Source: Raillietiella orientalis
Taxonomy: Eukaryota
DNA length: 64,000 nt
NCBI GenBank assembly: GCA_036172245.1
Contig: JAYWIR010000016.1
Coordinates: forward strand, 1,302,001 to 1,366,000
Direction of reading: 5' to 3'
This document shows, one piece after another, positions 2,631 through 59,588 of the stretch. Below the pieces are notes generated by a model. It ran no database searches. It was not told the origin of the DNA and worked only from the letters and a program-made list of their open reading frames with translations. The first letter of the stretch is position 1; each line of letters begins with the position of its first letter. Both the position numbers and the translations under genes were made by a program.

Positions 2631-5227
2631 TTCGAGTACTCCTTGGTTCTCCCGTGGAGAGACGATCGCCCGTCCAGCCTTTCGTGTTTTCTAAGGTCAC
2701 GCGTTTATCATCCGTGGCGTTCTTTATTGTTTCAGGGATTGGCCGCATTCACCCTTTGCGTTATCGGTGCTCTTAAGAGATAGCTGTTATTTATTCACTA
2801 TTATTTTTTTCTTTTACCTAATGACTCAATTCTTTGCTTTGAATCATTTCAGCCGTATTCTTGGCTTGCCAAGAATCTGAAACGTAGTCCATGGGCTTAA
2901 TAGTAGTTAATATATCCTTGCCTCATCAAAGTCAGCCGTAAGCATTCGGCCTCTTGAGATACAAATTGAACACGGATTCTTCTGTGTGGCTAAGCGCGTT
3001 CCTTGCGTTAGGCATTCGCTATTTGGGAACGCCTTCTCCGCGAAGCCTGGAAGGGTCTCGGAAGAAATCGTTCCCCATCCGGCTGGGATGCGTTCGTGAG
3101 ACGAATGGAAAGGAAGATGGGAAGCAAAAACACAAAAAGTTTGTTCGCGAATCTCGAGATCGCGTATCTGTCAACTCATCAGCAACCGACGAAGCACTCA
3201 GAAATAGATTTCGAGTGAAACATCGAAAGAGGTGCGGCGGGGTGGGTAAAACCTGCTATTCCTAGAAACCAAAGCGAGAATTCTAAAATCAGTCCTTTTT
3301 TTTTTTTTTTTTTTTTTTTTTCCCCTTCGTCGTTGTTGTTTTTTGTTTTTGCTGTGTATCCCGATACGGAATTCCCTCTCTGATTGGGATCCAAAAAGCA
3401 ATCACTGATTAGAGAAGCAGCCGCGTTCTCTTTCCGTGATTACACGTTTACGCAGGGAGGTACCCTCACTCCGGCTGGTGAAGGTTCACCGGCCGGGATG
3501 AAAAGAATCAACTTGAGCACACGGGAGTGCAGTTCCGGATCGCCTTGTCGACGGAGAATCCTCCCGAAAGGGAAATTCTGTGGGTAGTGGGAAATGGGCA
3601 GGCTTGCGGGGGCGCCCGGCCCTTCTTTGTGCCCTGCATGCTTTGGTGAGATAGGGAAGCAGCAGGAAAGTAGCGAGAAGTGATGGTTTCCCTCGAAACT
3701 CCTGTCTGCTTTGCTCGGTAGCATTTGCGATGATTCAGTCCACGGTTCGGGAGCAGGCGTGGGAGGTGCCGTGAGTGGGCGTCACCTGGGGATCGCGGCG
3801 ATGTTGCCCGAATTCGTTGGCGGGGTGTAGGTACGCCCAAATCACGCCCGGCTGCTTTACTCGTGCGATGCAAACCTGGAAACATCCTCTGAAGAAAAAA
3901 AAAAAAAAAAAAAATGGCTGAAGAGGAGATGTGTGAGTGCGACGAAACTGCGCAGGATCCGCCACCAGGTGGGGGAGTAGCCCCGACGGGAGGGAGGCAG
4001 GCGGGCGCTCGTTTCGGAGCACCTCCCACAGGCGACAGGCTGAAGAGGCGTAGAGCAGAACCAGAGAGTTCTTGTGTTGGACGGGATAACCATGGATGCC
4101 CCTCTCCCGTATGTCCGGAACAGGTAGAAGGACTCGACGCGATCACAGCAAGTCAGCTGTTTTACACGACAGCCGTGTAATTGAGGCGGAAGGTGGATCG
4201 CTGCGGAGGTACGGCGTCTGCCTTTTCTCCAGACTCGGAGTGTGGGTTCGTTTGGAACGGCGGGAGTCCCAGATCCGTGAAGAAGGGCCGTTGCCGCGCA
4301 GAGTTCTCGAATCGGAGCCCTCCCGGCACCAGGGTACCCCCCACGTTTTGGAGCGAGCCGCGAGAAAGCTTCGGAAGCTGGCGTTCCCACCACGGACGGA
4401 TCCGGAAATCGGGGTCCCTGATTATCGTGTTGACACGACACGATGACAGCGAAAGTTTTCCTTGCAGGATCCGACTTTATGGCTTGTTTTTGTTTCGATC
4501 GACGATGTTCATGAAGACAGCCACGTGGAGCGTGCTCTCGTTCAGAAGGGATTTGGGGAGAGAGGGGGGGAGGCAGATAATTGGTTCATGTTTCGGGCTT
4601 CCCCTTCCCCTCCCCCCTCCCTTCCCTGTGGGGGCGTCAGGGGGACACTGAATTGGAGGATGCGGTAAGTCAAAGCGGATCTCGTCGTGTAGGAACTTGT
4701 CTGGGCCTGAAAGGCTCGCGCGCAAAGTCTTGATTGATTTCTCTTTTGGAGCTTTTCTGTTTGCCCTCTTCCCCTTTTGAAGTTGCAGCCATTTCACCTT
4801 GAAAGAGCGCTGATGAAAATTCTCTTTTGTGAGTTGAAGCGTTGCGTTGCTTCACCGGGACTCGGCGGTGATGGATCCGTGTGGGGGGTCACGCTTGCTT
4901 TGCCTGTAATTGGGTACAAGGAGAACGGAACTTTGCAGCTACTACGGAGACGAAGAATCTGGATGTAGACAAGCGTTTCTGCTGTGCTCGTGACAACACC
5001 TCTTAAAACTGAATTAGTCTTCGGGAGCAGCGGAGAAGGATTCGAACGATTTATAACGTGCATCTTAAGAAAAAAAAAAAAGGAAAAAGGAAACCTTCCA
5101 AACTGTCTCCAGATTTCAACTCTGCCCACAGTATGATAAAAGACGGAAAGGTGTAAAAATGGTGGAGAGCTCTCTCTCCCTTTCATGCTTTTTTTTTTTC
5201 TTCTTTGTATTCCCTCTTTACTCAACG

Positions 5228-5390
5228 AGTAAATCTGTTCTTATCCAGCTTAATAGCTGATGCACCACCTATCTGGTGGTGGCCAGTGTGTTAGGCTACT
5301 TTTTTGGAAGCGGACGGCATGCTTGTAGGTTGCTCCTCGCCTGTCGTCTGCTGACCTGGCGTCGAAGCACCTCTGGGGTGGGTCTCGTAC
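5228..5390 (+). ncRNA. U2: U2 snRNA-like sequence (variant or pseudogene, 5'-truncated)
   Basis: ATCTGTTCTTATCCAGCTTAATAGCTGAT matches the U2 stem IIa region. Stem IIb is CACCACC-TATCT-GGTGGTG. An Sm-like ACTTTTTTTGGA and TTGCTCC follow. GACCTGGCGTCGAAGCACCTCTGGG resembles U2 stem-loop IV (GACCTGGTATTGCAGTACCTCCAGG). Confidence 0.8.
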
Positions 5391-5444
5391 TTCCCCTCAC
5401 GGGAGGACCACTACACGCAAAGGCAAAGAGTAAGATTACGTCCT

Positions 5445-5604
5445 TCTGCAGCACACAGGCGGGTGTGTGGACAGGAGAAGGAGCAAGCTCCAAGCGCTTC
5501 GTCCACTTGCGAAAAAATAGTCTAATGTACTGGCCACCTGATAGGTGGCGTATCAGATAGTAAGCTGATAAGAACAGATTTTCAATAAAAAAGGCCGAGA
5601 CTAT
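5445..5604 (-). ncRNA. U2: U2 snRNA-like sequence (variant or pseudogene, branch-point-recognition region absent)
   Basis: The reverse complement reads ATAGTCTCGGCCTTTT (U2 5' end), TTATTGAAA, ATCTGTTCTTATCAGCTTACTATCTGATAC (stem IIa), GCCACCT-ATC-AGGTGGC (IIb), ATTTTTTCG (Sm-like), then GTGGAC..GGAGCTTGCTCC..GTCCAC (stem III). Stem IV is partial. Confidence 0.85.
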
Positions 5605-9293: not shown

Positions 9294-9327
9294 GAATGAA
9301 GCTGCCAAAGACTCGTATGCGGACCGG

Positions 9328-9652
9328 CAGTGGGAGGCTTGGACCTGTGGGCGGAACACACGAAACGTGCCCTGCCGTGCTCCCCGAGGTGTTTCAGTGG
9401 GAGGCTTGGACCTGTGGGCGGAACACACGAAACGTGCCCTGCCGTGCTCCCCGAGGTGTTTCAGTGGGAGGCTTCGACCTGTGGGCGGAACACACGAAAC
9501 GTGCCCTGCCCGTGCCCCCCCGATGTGTTTCAGTGGGAGGCTTCGACCTGTGGGCGGAACACACGAAACGTGCCCTGCCCGTGCCCCCCCGATGTGTTTC
9601 AGTGGGAGGCTTGGACCTGTGGGCGGAACACACGAAACGTGCCCTGCCCGTG
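9328..9652. repeat. Minisatellite, ~4.8 copies of a 67-69-bp unit
   Basis: The unit CAGTGGGAGGCTTGGACCTGTGGGCGGAACACACGAAACGTGCCCTGCCGTGCTCCCCGAGGTGTTT starts at 9328, 9395, 9462, 9531 and 9600. Units are near-identical with no unique spacers. Confidence 0.97.
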
Positions 9653-12600
9653 GCGCATCCGTGGCTGCACCGCCATTGCGCAGCTGTTCTTCCATCACCT
9701 TCTTTCCCCTTCTTGGCACTCATTTACGGATCCTTTCACAAAAATCTTCCTCCGTTCAGTTTGGGAACACGGGAAATACTTCAGCGATGTTTCTTCGTAT
9801 TGAAATTTTAAAATGGCACATGAACTCGGCATGCACACAGTCTGACGCAGCTCTAAAGTAATACGATTGAAAAATGATACTGTTACCTTGGCTCCAAGCG
9901 ACTCCGGAACGTTTCCCGTGATGTTCATTCTGTGAAACGCTATATAACGCTGGTGCGAAAAGGTGTGGCAGGAACCATTACCATATGTTATTAAGGATGT
10001 GACGATGAGACAAATGCATATTTGGAAAAAATAAAGTGAAGCAAATTCCGTACTAGCACCGTCACCCGCGAAGGCTGTCAAAAGTGAGTTCCGGCTGAGT
10101 GTTGGACTGATTTTGATTTGTAGATTGGTGGATTCGGTGGAGAGTCTATCGGAAAGGAAACGAACAGAGAAAGCGTTCTTTCCAGCAGCAGTGGCGAAGG
10201 CGGCTTGAATGAGAGTGGACAGAAGCAGCATTCCTTGGCGTTCAGGCCAGCGGCCATACAAAACTGCGGAAAAGACATGGCGGAAGTTGATCGGGAGAAA
10301 ACAGGAATAGTTGTTACACAGTAACGGATGGTACAAAGAAGAAGAAGAAGAAGAAAACTAGCGCAATATTGTACTCGTCCAGCGTAGCATTTGGCTTGTT
10401 TTCCTGAGAGTCCGAGCACATTGAGAGGGCATTTAACGCAGTCTTGCAGCTTGGCTGGTCCTCGCGAGTCGAAAGCCCGGCGGGCCCGCAGCATTCGTCG
10501 GAAGAAAGTTCACTCTATCCTGGGGTTCTCGCGAGCAACCTCCAAGTGGTGGACCCCGAGACTTCCCAGAACTGCTGTCTGGACCCTGCTGCCAAAAATC
10601 TGAAGGGTGCGAGCGTGTTCCACACTTTCAAATCCAAGGTAGCCGACCGGACTCCACGTAGCCTGGAACTGGGACACGTGCAAGAAAAGCACGGTGCGCT
10701 ATTCGCTCCCTTTTGTACGCCGTCGAAATGAAGTTGTACGTTGTACGTTGGCCGCTTGGCGGGTACACACACACGAAGAAGAAAGAGATGCCGAGTACGG
10801 GGCATCGATAGCCGCATGGGAACTTCAGGGAACCCCAGACCAGAACTTGATTTATCGATCCCTGTGAACAAAGTGTGGATCGCATTCTGGATAATTAATT
10901 TGCACAGTGTGCCGCTACACGGGTCATAGATGGAAGCCACAACCGGACACGAATTAAGTGTTTCCGTTTTCGGAACACCATCGCCTCCGAAAAACTCCCG
11001 TGAGCAGCGCCTCACACAAAGATGCCCTTGTTGTTGTACGGAACCGTTTCTACCGCAGAAAGTCGGAAACAATTCCACAGGAAGCACTCCCACGTTTTAC
11101 TTCCGGTTTGTTCCTGAAGCTGTCCGTGATTTGTTGAACTTGCTCGGGTTCCCCCCCCCCCCCTATCCCTAAAGAACGAAATAAATCAGAAATGGAAATT
11201 TCACTCCTCAGATATCCGTTTGTTCTTTTCGCAGTTGCTTGAACATCCCTCAAACACTGCTGGAGACGAAGAGAAAACGTCGAAAGCATTTCTCCAGATC
11301 AAAAGTTTCATGAAAATAATGGTGCCCGTCGATCCTTGCAATTTCTGGATTCGGGAATCACAGATCGGGAATTTCCGAACGATCTCTCTGGATGGAAGTG
11401 GAATTGGTCGCTCCAGAATATTAGCTTTCGAAATTTTGCTGTTGTCGGCAATCCTTGTCCTTAAACAAGATCCTTGAAACTTCTGTAAACAATCTTATAA
11501 TTTTGCTGCTGTTGGCAACCAAGCAACCGAACATGAAAATGTGTGACATCTTAAAAAGGGTTCCCGCTGAAAAGCAAGACAGAAGCAAGCATGGTCATTG
11601 TCTTTAGGAAGCTTACGTCATCACCGTTTGATGGATGCAGAAAGGTCAGCTCATCAGCAGTTGCTTCGAGGATGTTCCAGTGCTTCTCTGAACACGGAGC
11701 CTTGCGAGGCACAGCTTGCGCTCCTGCAGCCAGCGAGTTCGGCTCCGAGAAGTCTCTTCGAAGACGGAGGCTGTGAGGGACTGTGCACGTCGACAGGAGG
11801 GAACCAGAAGTATCCAGCACTTGGGGTCCAGCGAGACATCCAAAAGATAACGGGAAATTCCACACAAATTGCGCATCCTTACGCGTCAGGAATGCCTCAG
11901 TGCCCACGGAGACACTAGATCACCACCGATCACTTCATCAAATGGGACGCAATGCATTTCCAGCTACCACCATCAACAGGCTCAAATCTGAGAAACGAAG
12001 GGTTAAAAAGCGCGGAAGAACAACCGCTCTTGAGGTTGCTGCACTTGCATTCCTGCTTGTGCTGCACCGCTTTCAGGAACCGGAGTTGGCGTTCCCTTCG
12101 AAAGCAGCTGCCTTTCCATCTTGCTGCTGCAGAATACCGAGTGCTTGGGTTTGCGTCTGGCATCCCTGCTGCTACCTCGTGAAGTCCTTAGCATGAGAAG
12201 AAGCGTTTTCTTCTCACGGCATTAGGGAGCCGCGGAGGGCGGCTTGCATGCTTGCCTGCAGGATTAAAAAGGCCCGGGGTCACTTCTTCCCAGAACTGAC
12301 AAAGGATGATAACCGGCAAATGGATAACGTGCTCCGCAAACAGTGTGGAGACGTGGGGAAGCGGATCGAAGCTCGATCCCGAATCCTCCGGGATCCACAT
12401 CGTTCATTGTGCAACACCAAGCAGCCAAGCGTCCCGGTCCGGCCCCTCCTCGAGCGGCGACTCGGTGATTTGGTTCCTTCCACGCAGGAAGTGGAGGGAT
12501 CTTCTTCGAGATCCGTACGCAGCTTCCGCCATCAGTGGATCTCGCGGCTCCACTTTCCATGTCGCTCTGCCCTTCGGTTAGTCCGCACTCTTCCTGCTTG

Positions 12601-13382: not shown

Positions 13383-14172
13383 GCCGCATGGCTGCAGCTT
13401 CCGCACTTGGCCGTACCAGACGTCGCGGGTTCGAATCCTGCTCGGGAAGGATCGGCGCCGAGAACGGGGGGTGCGTCGTGGGTTTGGAACACCCATCCCC
13501 CGCGCAGGATGACACTGGTTGGTCTATTCGGGTGCGGCACTGGTGGAAGCAGCCGAAAACAGGATGTCCCCGTTGACCGGCTAGGATTGGGAGTTGATCT
13601 TCCGGGTCCTTCCAGAACATCAACGAGTAGCTCCTCTCCGGTTGTGAAAACGGGACCACCCTCTCCTCTAGGGGAGGAGGGGGGCATCCTCCATCTCATA
13701 CCACGAAGCTGTGAATTGATACAGACGGTCAAGAAGCACGCTGGTCCCATGGGGGCCGACCCTTCAGGAAAAATTCCTCAGCGTCCCTTCGGGGTTCTCT
13801 TCAGAAAAGCAAAACCAGGGAGTGTTTCCCTTGCAGGTTTCCTCCGGAGAAGAAATTCCAGGAGCAGATCCCTTCAAGGAGTTCCCTCGGGAGAGAACAA
13901 GGAAGCGAGGCTCCTTCGGAGGTTTCCTTCAGAGACAACCGGGACGGGAAGTGCTCTTCGGGACTCCTTCCCCAAAGTCAGAGAGGAACGGACTCCGGAG
14001 CCCTTCTTGGATTCATGGGGTGGTCCCCCTCCCGAGGTCACTCCCTATTACTTGAAGAGCGGCATGCGTCCTCTCGGGTGGCGTGGGCAGTGCCAAACAG
14101 CTTCGTGAGCCCCACTCCCTAAGGAGGCGAACGGCCCTTCGGCAATTCCTGAGAACCAAAGAAAAAAAAAAG
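13383..14172 (+). mobile_element. tRNA-headed SINE-like repeat, near full-length copy 1
   Basis: The head is GCCGCATGGCTG...GGTTCGAATCC (B box, 13428-13438). The body aligns by eye with the copies at 17432/24188, 36335-37013, 37140-37375 and 60950-61475. An A-rich tail lies at ~14157-14172. Confidence 0.75.
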
Positions 14173-17431: not shown

Positions 17432-17576
17432 GCCGCATGGCGGCGCCAGGCGTCGCGGTTCGAATCCCACCCGGGGAAGGGGCGACGCCGAGAACGGGGG
17501 GTGCATCGTCGCCGGTTTCGAGCCTTCCCTGCAGGATGGCGCTTGTTGACCTTAGAGGCTCCCGGTGCGGCACTGG
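17432..17576 (+). mobile_element. tRNA-headed SINE-like repeat copy 2, 5' half (interrupted by LINE)
   Basis: GCCGCATGGC...GGTTCGAATCC (17457-17467)...GCCGAGAACGGGGGGTGCATCGT...GGTGCGGCACTGG. Homology stops at 17576 and resumes at 24188. Confidence 0.75.
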
Positions 17577-17829: not shown

Positions 17830-19320
17830 GGGGGCTCCCGCTGCATCCTTCTAAGGATGCCGGTAAGTTCCTGTTTTATGGTTCCCAGATGAGGCCATCT
17901 TGACGCTGTCCTCATCTAGAGGACAGCAAAATGAATGGCGTCCCTGTCATTCTGCCCTCTGGCGTTGTTCCATGCGGCCACGATCTCGCGTAGGCAGCCC
18001 CGTGCTGCTAGGGATGAGGCCGGCGAGAGGGCGTTGCTCAGGAAGAGGCTCTTTAAAACGTTTCTGGTGTTGCTGCTGGGGATTCCAAGGGCCGTGGCCA
18101 AGCGTCCTCAAAGGGGCCGGAGGACAACACAGTCTACCAGGAGATACGGGAAGACTCCTGCTCCCCGCACCGTGCACAGTTTGGGTTCACACACCCCGTG
18201 TCCACAGATGCCGGCGGGCGTTGCACAGGATGCCCCAATGCAGTATCATCAACGCCGACTCCTGCCATTTTAAAGGGAGAGTGCGGGTGTTCATGAGCAC
18301 CGGGGGCCACTGCAGGTCTTCCCCCGGAATACCCAGTAGCATGCCCCAGCGCAAAAGCCCACGAGTCCGAGCACTCGGAGTCGCAGCGTCAGTGAGCTGG
18401 CTCGTCGTCCACTCGCCCAGTCCTCTTTTTCCGGAGATCTCTACAGTGATCTCCCATTTGGCCGTAAGGCTGCTGTCCAGATACTCCCTAAGGGAGGGCA
18501 CCCTAGCGGCGAGGGAGGTTCTGTTTGCCCATGCACTCTTCGCGGGATCTTCCAGGATCTCCCGGAGCGTGCAGTTGTTGTTGAGCGCGTACAGGGAACG
18601 TCGCCCCTGTTCCGCGCTTGGCTCCTGGATACGCGCCCACGTGCGAACGATTTCCTGCAATCGGGCACTACCGTTCGCGAGGCGGCACGAGATCCATCCG
18701 TTGTTCGTGTCCAGCGTGGCCATCTGCCGAAGGTGCAGTCCACAGTGGATGAGGCTGAGTGGAGGGCACTCAAGGAAGGACGTGAGCCCCACGCTGTCGG
18801 TGGCTTGCTGGAAGAGAAGACGTGCAGGTTGGCACCAGGTGGTGCTCCAGAGGTTTGCCGCGAGGGCAAGTGTTCGAAACTGGAGCTGCAGTTCCATTCG
18901 TTCCAGCATCAGGAAGAGATCTAGACCGCCGTCCGGCGTGGAGCCCACAAGTCCTTAAGGGGGACTCGGTGTCTCCATTTGCCCCAGAGGGCGATACAGA
19001 GGAGGTCCATTGTCCGCGTCCTAATGCTGCATGGAGGGGAGCAAACAAAAAGTAGGGGGCGGAGGAGGAAGACCACGAAGGCGTTCCGCACCGCGGCCCA
19101 TTCCGGCATCTGCCTCGTTGGGACGGGCCGAACGCCTGCAGTGCTTTTTGAAGACGGCCGGAACAGGCTTCTGAGGGGCAAAAGTCCCCCAGCGGAACGC
19201 CCATGTACTTTAACTACTGGCCCGTGGGGATTCTCATTCAGATCCAGTCCGGCCAACCTGCCCACGCCGCACCAACGGGAACCACGGACGACTTCGCCTT
19301 GTTCACACAAGGTTCAATGG
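17830..19320 (-). pseudogene. LINE ORF2 C-terminal region (RT thumb + pre-zf-RVT domain)
   Basis: ORF 18187-18948 reads DGGLDL...GLLRWGMLLG...LPLKWQESALMILHWGILCN and is homologous to 21104-21470, 21475-22016 and 62110-62880. Segment 18946-19310 is a thumb-domain copy. Confidence 0.75.
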
Positions 19321-19393
19321 CTCTCCCTGCCGTATGCAGAGTCGCTTGTGCGCTCCACGTCAGGATGCCTAGGCCGCCATCCCGACGCGGAGC

Positions 19394-20760
19394 TCACAAG
19401 TCCTTCAAGCGGACCCGGGCCCTCCCGTTGCCCCAAAGGGCGATACGGAGGAGGTACTTCGTCCGCTTTTTTATCCTCTCTGTGGGGGGGCAAACAAAAG
19501 GCAGGGAACTGAGGAGAGGAGCCGCGAACGTGTTCCAAACCGCGGCCCGTTCAGGCAGGAAAAACCTGCCGCCTGGGAACGGGCCGATCGCCGTCTCTAC
19601 TTTTTGGAGGCAGCTGGACCACGCTTCCGCAGGGGAATAGTCCCTCAACGGTACACCAAGGTACTTGAAGTACCTCACCGTGGGGATCCCCAAACGGACC
19701 CAGTCCTGCTGCCCTGCCCACGCCGCACCAACGGGCATCACGGACGACTTCGCCCTGTTCACCGTAAGTCCAGTTCCCCGATTCAGCAGGTCGAAGAACT
19801 CTTCGACCGCCGAAGCCGGGGTGGACATAGGGAGCAGCAGCAGAAGGTCGTCCGCGTACGCTGAAACCGCAGGCGTACCGGCGCAGTCGTGCGGCAGGTG
19901 CGTCAGAGTTTCCCTGTACGCCCTCAGTACCAACTCGAAGTCGGTACTGAAGAGCAAGGGGCTCAGGCTGTATCCCACGCCGCACCGGCACGCCGTGCAC
20001 GGTCTGCCCGCTGAAAGAAACGTTGATGAGCGCGGCGCGCCAGCTGGAGCGCAGATAGGCCACTAATGAGGCCGGGAAGCCCAAGCGTTCCAGAAGCTCC
20101 AGCAGGAGATTCTGGTCGACGCAGTCGAATGCGACCGCAAGGCCTCCCTCCCCCACCCGACCATCTGACCCTTTGCCGGCGCACGCACCGGAATTCCGGT
20201 TGCTCAATAAGCCCCTTTCTTGTTGGAGCTCTAGCCAGGTGGAAGCGTGGAACAGGTTCGCCTCCATGCTTCGCCCGGGAACAACATATGTCTGTTCCGG
20301 GCTGATGAAGGCGTTTGCAACCCGTCCCAGCCTCTCGTCTCAAACCTTTGCTAGCAACTTGGCGTCCGCATTCACTATTTTGATGGGACGCCAGTTGTTT
20401 ATGCGTTGTAGATCTCTCCTCCTTTGGGAGGAGCCGTACCCTTGCTAAACGAAACGAGGCGGGAACGTCGCCTTTTCTCGTATCAGCAGGGTCAATTTTT
20501 GTATCAGGGGGGTCAGCTCCGCCGCGAAGTATTGGAAAAACTCCGCAGGCAGGCCGGCTGGGGCCATCCGGTAGCTCTCTGCAGGAAGCGAACAGCATAC
20601 GGGATGACGGCCCTCTCGTTGGCGTCTTCATCTTCGGCTTCACGCCAGGCCGCCACAATCCCGCGGACGCAGCAAAGTGCTGCCAGGACTGCGGCTGTCT
20701 GCAGGGCGTCCCGCACGAAGAGAAGGCGGTAAGCGTCTCTGGAATTGCTGCCGGTATTCC
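19394..20760 (-). pseudogene. LINE reverse transcriptase domain (frameshifted)
   Basis: Motifs RVRLLPK, NWRPI, AFDCVD, LSPLLF, SAYADDL, VNRAKS and FKYLGV are spread across three frames. Confidence 0.9.
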
Positions 20761-36334: not shown

Positions 36335-37013
36335 GATCCCTGGAGGGGGTCGCTCCTCATTTCTTCTCGGAAGGGCACCCGCAAGGGACCCTCTCCCTGT
36401 TTACTCTTCCTGTGAAGAGAACCAGGGAGGGGGCGCTGCTGCATCCCCCGTCGCGGGGAAAGCGGCAGCTCCATCTCCCGGAAGAACTTTCCGCTGACCT
36501 CGGCCTTCACTTCCGGCCGACCGACCTTTGGCCTCTTCGATTTTCATTCCTTGGAAGTGCCTTCCCTTCGCGGTGCTCCGGGCCGAGGACAACTCCCAAG
36601 GGACGCTCCCCAATTTTCTCTGAAGGGCTCTCTCCGAAGGGAGCAGCGCGCTTCTTGCACTCTGGAGTCATCATCAATCCACCAGCTCTGTGATACAAGA
36701 TGGAGGGTCCTCCCCGAGGGAGAAGGGGGACAGCTCCATTTTCACAACCGGAAGGGAACTTCGAAGGGAACCGGCTCCTTGATTCCTGGAAGGACTTTCA
36801 ATCCCAGCTACTCAGCGGGGGCATCCATGGGTTTCTGGCTGCTGCCACCAGTGCCGCACCCGAATAGGCTGACCAACGTCATCCCGCAGGAAGGAGGGGC
36901 TTGAAAACTACGACGCAACCCCCGTTCTCGGCGTCGACGACCCTTCCCCGGGCGGGATTCGAACCCACGACGCTTGATGGTGCCAGGCGTGGAGGCCGCA
37001 GCAGCCACGAGGC
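36335..37013 (-). mobile_element. tRNA-headed SINE-like repeat copy 3
   Basis: The B-box reverse complement GGATTCGAACC is at 36955-36965. The body contains TATTCGGGTGCGGCACTGGTGGCAGCAGCC, CCGGTTGTGAAAA and CAAGAAGCGCGCTGCTCCC. Confidence 0.8.

Positions 37014-49030: not shown

Positions 49031-59588
<10,558 letters not shown>

Follow-up and report, generated by a model that had tools for sequence, protein, structure and literature searches.

An inverted pair of U2 fragments

The window analyzed here is a 64,000-nucleotide (nt) stretch of the Raillietiella orientalis genome (contig JAYWIR010000016.1; C16:1,302,001-1,366,000 within a 210-Mb assembly), and positions below are window positions unless a contig is named; contigs and loci carry the prefixes C and L. 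It contains two convergent fragments of the gene for U2 small nuclear RNA (snRNA), which are probably non-functional by-products of retrotransposons without long terminal repeats (non-LTR retrotransposons) of the Utopia type (Table 1). The Rfam U2 model, with a gathering score of 46, matched the minus strand at 5604-5431 with 65.2 bits and the plus strand at 5210-5392 with 38 bits (E 2.8e-5), the latter under the gathering score. An earlier sequence-only reading of the window had described two convergent U2-like copies that lack the branch-point-recognition region, and both points hold: the U2 body starts at nt 39 in each copy (5234 on the plus strand, 5578 on the minus strand), and the branch-point-recognition and U6-pairing region, nt 19-38, is absent from both.

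In the plus copy, U2 sequence reaches approximately nt 190, and roughly 50 nt of U2-gene 3' flank come after it. In the minus copy, resemblance to U2 stops at approximately nt 146, and the 50 nt beyond show no match to U2 147-190 (a score equalled by 398 of 1000 shuffles). The two copies are thus separated by about 80 nt, most of it U2-gene 3' flank. The convergence described earlier stands, whereas the longer minus copy and the spacing of about 55 bp that came with it do not.

Table 1. Parts of the U2 pair and its immediate surroundings (window positions)
Feature	Position	Strand	Remarks
Decayed 3' end (untranslated region, UTR) of a putative Utopia-type element	5156..5233	+	Profile score 12.0; 5' limit approximate; no open reading frame (ORF) remnant
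Decayed U2 snRNA fragment, nt 39 to ~190	5234..5390	+	nt 39-146: 96/108 identical to the gene, 5 inserted bases
Old 3' flank of the U2 gene that accompanies the plus copy	5391..5443	+	Local score 53.5 (best shuffled 40); L021/L013/L006 flank type
Spacer, not significantly U2-like	5444..5469	.	398/1000 shuffles as high
Decayed inverted U2 fragment, nt 39 to ~146	5470..5578	-	97/108 identical to the gene
T/A-rich 10-nt piece, probably from the very 3' end of a Utopia-type element	5579..5588	-	Too short for a firm assignment
U2 5' head: exact nt 7-18 (5600-5589) and degenerate nt 1-4	5589..5604	-	No U2 promoter upstream

The minus copy has a composite order, in which a U2 head is joined to the U2 body through the 10-nt T/A-rich piece. 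The 12-nt exact head, already recognized in the earlier reading as a retained U2 5' end, is beyond chance: 12-mers of U2 1-38 were found at 3 of 507,560 background positions, the window included, and the overlap with U2 1-38 in the 40 nt upstream of the other 31 junctions is 7 nt at most. A whole-genome search with the exact head-gap-body pattern returned 3 places against 2 in the control, and the head-joined form of the minus copy was found only in the window. Both copies retain Sm-like U tracts, as had been noted.

Decay of the two copies

Because no intact U2 gene is assembled, the two U2 halves of a disrupted gene on C389 were used as the reference for decay. Pairing involves 50 of the 108 positions of U2 nt 39-146. 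Within this segment the plus copy has 12 substitutions, of which 6 affect paired sites, and 5 of its 25 pairs are broken; the minus copy has 10 substitutions, 3 at paired sites, with 2 broken pairs. None of the broken pairs is compensated in either copy, and stem IIc of the minus copy has lost 2 of its 7 pairs. The placement of substitutions in both copies fits a neutral simulation (P 0.24-0.93), and 29 other U2 copies carry 0.086 changes per paired site compared with 0.095 per unpaired site. Stem IIb had been singled out in the sequence-only reading because it differs between the copies and pairs in each. It does pair in both, but without compensatory change: relative to the gene copy, the minus copy has a single substitution, T78A (present in 1 of 31 copies), and the plus copy has G68A and a 3-nt TGG insertion attributable to slippage.

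No match to the U2 promoter was found upstream of the minus copy, where 378-437 of 500 random pieces match the four promoters as well, or upstream of the plus copy (score 19 against a shuffle maximum of 25). As judged from their sequences, both window copies are dead U2 fragments, that is, fossils and not new working RNAs. Two ordinary dead pseudogenes had been named in the earlier reading as what substitutions random relative to the stems, no expression, and a single copy would indicate; the substitutions are indeed blind to the stems, but the copies are not solitary, as they belong to a genome-wide class in which the inverted arrangement recurs.

A separate, post hoc observation concerns nt 39-128 of the plus copy (5234-5330), where 5 of 10 substitutions are A to G compared with 64 of 422 in unpaired loci. 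The excess was not found across other paired loci, and an editing-like A-to-G bias in paired arms is not significant (P 0.055 for inverted arms, which are not independent, and 0.77 for forward arms).

U2 genes and promoters in the assembly

The host genome's U2 has one more A ahead of the branch-point motif than the U2 consensus assumed in the earlier reading, which explains why a junction pattern built on that consensus had no genome match. The corrected pattern gave 5 inexact matches over the assembly and no full U2, and no intact U2 gene is present in the assembly. Matches to the U2 promoter are limited to 4 places, on C30, C389, and C482, with a disrupted U2 behind each, and the U2 cluster on C30 has promoters in both orientations. 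The working U2 genes probably sit in an unassembled array. An insertion preserved in place on C389 shows the promoter and U2 1-38, which has a short duplication, then a truncated element of 1.4 kb, and finally U2 39-190 with flank. Beside the C30 cluster (L110, 2.73-2.74 Mb) there are also tandem copies of a different reverse transcriptase (RT; 970 aa), which is 22-27% identical to the Utopia-like RTs and has a decayed relative in the window at 19301-20561 on the minus strand.

A genome-wide class of nt 39 junctions

The Rfam U2 model matched 46 of 47 scored candidates, spread over many contigs. The junction-type loci examined are a partial sample of 75, made up of 30 Rfam loci and 45 further loci. 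The U2 body of all 30 Rfam loci that were fetched starts at nt 39, without adjoining U2 1-38, and it mostly sits behind an AATAAA-like end. Moreover, an 18-nt junction motif had 107 matches in the genome compared with 5 in controls. The junction between U2 nt 38 and 39 is the insertion site of the retrotransposons Utopia and Keno (PMC4640811, Kojima and Jurka 2015; this and the other papers cited below are represented by partial texts). Utopia elements are described as U2 snRNA gene-targeting non-LTR retrotransposons of the NeSL clade with a restriction-like endonuclease (RLE), some families being weakly specific, and disrupted U2 genes that lack the first 38 nt and lie beside Utopia 3' UTRs are reported to outnumber intact genes (PMC4640811).

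Among loci for which 10 kb were fetched, 9 of 19 have remnants of Utopia-like proteins upstream on the same strand, as do 21 of 45 loci for which 1 kb was fetched. Remnants adjacent to the junction bear CCHC and PD-(D/E)xK-type motifs, which represent RLE-type C-termini, and the endonuclease together with the CCHC knuckle is present at the sister junction loci L004, L149, and L156. The C389 insert has the same two motifs, and its best PDB match is the R2 endonuclease region (E 0.005). The RTs of the C30 cluster match Pfam RVT_1, with R2 structures as the best PDB matches, and have homologues in spiders, turtles, and nematodes and among RNase H-bearing oomycete proteins; the same host spread and domain forms are given for Utopia (PMC4640811). 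The family name is applied here on the basis of target site, domain type, and homologue spread. An apurinic-type endonuclease, as in Keno, was not among the remnants adjoining the junctions, which are RLE-type, in a survey that included no search aimed at it.

Near the window pair itself, tblastn of the sequence upstream of the copies found no Utopia ORF remnant. A profile built from 30 element 3' ends was therefore the means of assigning an element family to the window copies. It scored 12.0 in the 80 nt upstream of the plus copy, a value reached by 1 of 1000 random window pieces, and 2.7 upstream of the minus copy, where only 10 nt are available and 38 of 1000 random pieces score as high. 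Among held-out junction loci, 36 of 45 lie above the random 99th percentile, with a median of 10.4. Plain pairwise alignment of the upstream flanks is weak, as 12 of 300 controls score as high for the plus copy and 278 of 300 for the minus copy. The region in front of the plus copy consists of a purine-rich motif, a T-rich tract, and an A-rich end that adjoins U2 nt 39, and the 10-nt piece of the minus copy resembles the ends of L011, L017, and L030. Footprints of U2-targeting retroelements had been one of the options raised in the sequence-only reading, and it is this option that the nt 39 junction class, the RLE remnants at sister loci, and the element-like 3' end at the plus copy support.

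Dispersed loci, heads, and cassettes

Neither a U2 promoter nor a U2 head was found in the 9.4-9.7 kb upstream of 18 dispersed loci. The best promoter score was 27 compared with 141-192 in the cluster (0 of 18, one locus scoring 1 point above its own shuffle maximum), and the best head score was 24 compared with 66-76 in the cluster. These promoter-less loci include young ones that are 96-98% identical to the gene copy. The dispersed elements are 5'-truncated at varied points, and in 45 loci the U2 tails end anywhere between nt 54 and 190.

U2 heads are dispersed as well, a 23-nt U2 5' motif having 494 matches in the genome and none in the control. In a sample of 18 heads (within L031-L040 and L080-L087), of which 17 were used and L086 was left out, the match ends at nt 33-38, and 4 of the 17 loci have a flanking repeat of at least 7 nt compared with 6 of 306 null pairs, resembling tailless retropseudogenes; the flanks of L082 and L083 in this sample are identical. 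Two facing heads on C17 (L117 at 3,038,445 and L118 at 3,042,715), 4.2 kb apart with identical flanks, represent an inverted duplication. At L115 (C57 near 797,860, minus strand), U2 nt 1-38 runs into the 5' portion of a Utopia-like element through the same junction as on C482, and this locus has neither a promoter nor a 3' end.

Complete promoter-less cassettes, in which a U2 head, a Utopia tail, and a U2 tail follow one another, were found at 6 of 38 junction loci fetched regardless of heads (L145, L149, L155, L156, L161, and L178), all in unrelated DNA. Their element tails are approximately 55-815 nt long and are followed by U2 from nt 39, and the cassettes at L149 and L156 encode the endonuclease domain. 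A seventh cassette, L142, was chosen for its known nearby head. Flanking repeats exceed the null in 2 of the 6 cassettes tested (12 at L145 and 18 at L178, with a null maximum of 11 among 42 pairs), and the flanking repeat of the minus copy, with a score of 5, is inside the null range of 4-11. In its arrangement, the minus copy looks like the shortest member of this cassette class. In one cassette (L155, C64 near 185,660), the head before the short element tail is inverted, comprising the reverse complement of approximately nt 2-34 and then a short forward piece, which is similar to a twin-priming 5' inversion.

The inverted arrangement

An inverted second arm is present at 8 of the 30 Rfam loci, most of these arms running back to approximately nt 39, and at 4 of the 45 further loci. 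The total of 12 of 75 is biased by selection, and the Rfam locus set favours long copies. Because 3 of the 4 further loci were picked by a match to the family spacer, a less biased figure is 1 of 40. The inverted arms have at least two origins, one being a family with shared derived changes (L007, L008, L009, L014, L017, L127, L129, L131, and part of L024) and the other comprising L021 and L160. The distance from junction to junction is 345 nt in the window and 343-364 nt in the L007-type family. Membership of the minus copy in the arm family of L007, L009, and L014 was considered and is unsupported, as it is without most of their derived changes.

The two window arms are of similar age, judging from their identity to the gene (Table 1), and match each other at 88 of 109 positions, never over more than 12 nt without interruption, and share one derived change. 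Given the similar age and the single shared change, one arm is not a fold-back copy of the other, and an intramolecular origin of the pair was rejected. These same values indicate that the window arms are not being homogenized. Both outer flanks of the pair are single-copy in the genome, and the pair is therefore not a foldback transposon family.

At L024 (C30:1,093,287-1,093,635), a substitution at U2 nt 42 and the element 3' end are common to the two arms, and in its distal part the inverted arm falls into the old arm family. A fold-back origin is possible for this locus, since its arms share a substitution and an element family, and its structure suggests conversion or overwriting between arms. 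A further observation concerns the U2 3' flank approximately 45 nt past the U2 end (L002, L004, and L005; 5423-5437 in the window), where a short look-alike of the upstream half of the Utopia target can be seen by eye. Homology among young copies stops there and inverted arms begin just behind it, and the look-alike may be a secondary insertion site.

Origin of the pair

Each window copy begins its U2 body at nt 39 behind a sequence resembling an element 3' end, although only weakly in the minus copy, is without a promoter match, and has decayed without regard to structure. The reading given at the outset would account for these features if both copies were moved as retrocopies of read-through RNA. 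A Utopia-type element, inserted between U2 nt 38 and 39, would be transcribed with the host gene, and its RNA would have U2 nt 1-38 ahead of the element and, after it, U2 from nt 39 plus gene flank. Reverse transcription of this RNA may sometimes take place into sites outside the U2 cluster, leaving retrocopies that are truncated to varying extents on the 5' side and end at varying points on the 3' side. The plus copy would then be a 5'-truncated retrocopy (element 3' end, U2 39-190, and about 50 nt of flank), and the minus copy a near-minimal cassette (U2 head, 10-nt element tail, and U2 39-146) in antisense orientation just behind the plus-copy flank, where other inverted arms also start. 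The arms may already have been united in the source gene and travelled as one, or the second arm may be a later insertion, and the minus-copy head could equally result from a template jump onto U2 snRNA. For the class as a whole, it is likely that Utopia routinely exports chimeric RNAs made from the U2 promoter (head, element tail, U2 tail, and flank) as non-autonomous retrocopies.

Several points weigh against a retrocopy origin. Target-site duplications are not above null at the window copies or at the 30 Rfam loci, and deletion in place after insertion could mimic both the variable ends and the missing promoters. The element family of the window copies was assigned from a short 3'-end profile only, and the 10-nt tail of the minus copy is weak by itself. 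Moreover, among loci taken mainly from the junction list, an inverted arm occurs at only 1 of 40, and pairing is thus a minority state.

Alternatively, tail-to-tail U2 genes or orphons may have been placed by DNA-level duplication, each arm then being hit in place by Utopia, with later deletion of the 5' parts and promoters. Such losses have a parallel in Phytophthora, where Utopia insertions lose the U2 5' fragment (PMC4640811), and differing element 3' ends on one U2-plus-flank type and the two promoter orientations in the C30 cluster also speak for it. This origin is nonetheless unlikely, because all 18 dispersed loci, the young ones included, are without a promoter match, because the minus copy keeps a U2 head yet has no adjoining promoter, and because, in unrelated DNA elsewhere, heads begin at the transcription start (nt 1) or close to it.

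A further possibility is that the pair, or the U2-cluster sequence it came from, was kept because a read-through hairpin yields small RNAs that silence Utopia-invaded U2 genes. The 346-nt unit folds far below its shuffles (-177.5 kcal/mol compared with -110.7 +/- 5.9), and the recurrence of inverted arms from more than one origin, including 8 of the 30 Rfam loci, would suit such a role. Retention is very unlikely for all that, given the divergence of the arms from each other, the missing promoter, the absence of a significant editing-like bias, and a Pfam search of 30 ORFs that found no gene except a kinase piece 51 kb away. In a related form of the idea, the hairpin of an invaded U2 gene would itself be a functional trap producing small RNAs against Utopia-invaded U2 genes: the U2 3' flank would repeatedly have taken up antisense element-plus-U2 arms, read-through would fold into a long hairpin, and the window pair would be its exported fossil. 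We regard such a trap as improbable.

Two further options raised in the sequence-only reading are not supported. Expressed, Sm-bound U2 variants without splicing function are extremely improbable, as the persisting U tracts, stems IIa and IIb that can still form, and the U2 5' head of the minus copy are outweighed by the absent promoter match, uncompensated broken pairs, substitutions random relative to the stems, and a head-joined form unique in the genome. A U2-armed DNA transposon of the foldback or MITE type, with terminal inverted repeats derived from U2, for which the similar junction distances of the window and the paired-locus family could be cited, hardly deserves credence either, because the outer flanks are single-copy, the arms are bounded by retroelement 3' ends with one shared derived change and no shared termini or duplications, the inverted arm is without most derived changes of that family, and many members of that family are truncated within their second arm.

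Comparison with known systems

The retrocopy interpretation places the window copies close to Utopia as described in PMC4640811. The 3' junction at U2 nt 39, U2 copies without the first 38 nt, disrupted copies beside element 3' UTRs and in excess of intact genes, and an RLE domain with an R2-like RT (here at sister loci) are common to both. The fragments reported in that paper lie in U2 arrays, and the off-target copies it describes have only short U2-like sites, whereas here a U2 tail (nt 39 to 54-190, often with flank), sometimes accompanied by a head, occurs at dispersed promoter-less sites, and some loci have an inverted second arm. The window copies also differ from strict Utopia families in not lying inside a U2 gene with its promoter, as those on C389, C482, and C30 do.

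The R1 element of Drosophila, whose endonuclease is of the apurinic type, offers a parallel for carried target sequence. In R1 copies outside ribosomal DNA (rDNA), 28S sequence extends for 7-28 nt on the upstream side and for no more than 14 nt on the downstream side, and such target-gene flanks are taken as evidence of a template RNA with flanking target (PMC2718515). The target differs, being 28S rDNA, and the downstream flank is far shorter than the 16 to >250 nt observed here. Keno, of the Tx1 clade, has the identical 3' junction in U2, but its endonuclease is apurinic-type and the junction ORF remnants here are RLE-type (PMC4640811, PMC4494074). SINEU-3 of crocodilians is a retroposed, internally deleted U2 in which the 5' head is joined to a middle segment, as in the minus copy; it is multi-copy, has a poly(A) tail, and was probably moved by Tx1 elements (PMC4494074), whereas the minus copy is single and shows an element-like tail where its parts meet. 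Tailless U2 retropseudogenes are 5'-complete and 3'-truncated with target duplications, and part of the 494 heads look alike, although the former were described for therian L1 and have neither the U2 3' part nor an element tail (PMC5322556).

The element type and junction are thus already known, and the dispersed behaviour with long U2 tails is an off-target variant that is pervasive in the host genome. Among the titles and abstract openings searched, which cover the literature in part, no dispersed Utopia copies with long U2 tails and no inverted U2 pairs were found.

The locus itself is a fossil, and the class to which it belongs matters modestly. It suggests a leak of a strictly site-specific retrotransposon from its low-copy target, with read-through RNA being copied together with long stretches of the host gene. 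If this export is real, it would account for approximately 100 headless and 500 tailless U2 pieces in a genome with no assembled intact U2 gene. For annotators, Rfam U2 matches in the host genome are element scars, and the carried flanks preserve older versions of the U2 gene 3' region. How several Utopia families persist in few U2 genes has been posed as an open question (PMC4640811), on which the inverted arm would bear if it yields small RNAs.

Other features of the window

Five tandem copies of a 67-69 bp unit lie at 9315-9655. A dispersed repeat at 13391-13479, 17438-17524, and 36898-37002 has, by eye, a tRNA-like T-loop motif and is probably a short interspersed element (SINE); ARAGORN found no tRNA in the window. 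A short match to a protein-kinase exon at 56699-57835 was the only Pfam match among the 30 ORFs tested of 250 in the window.

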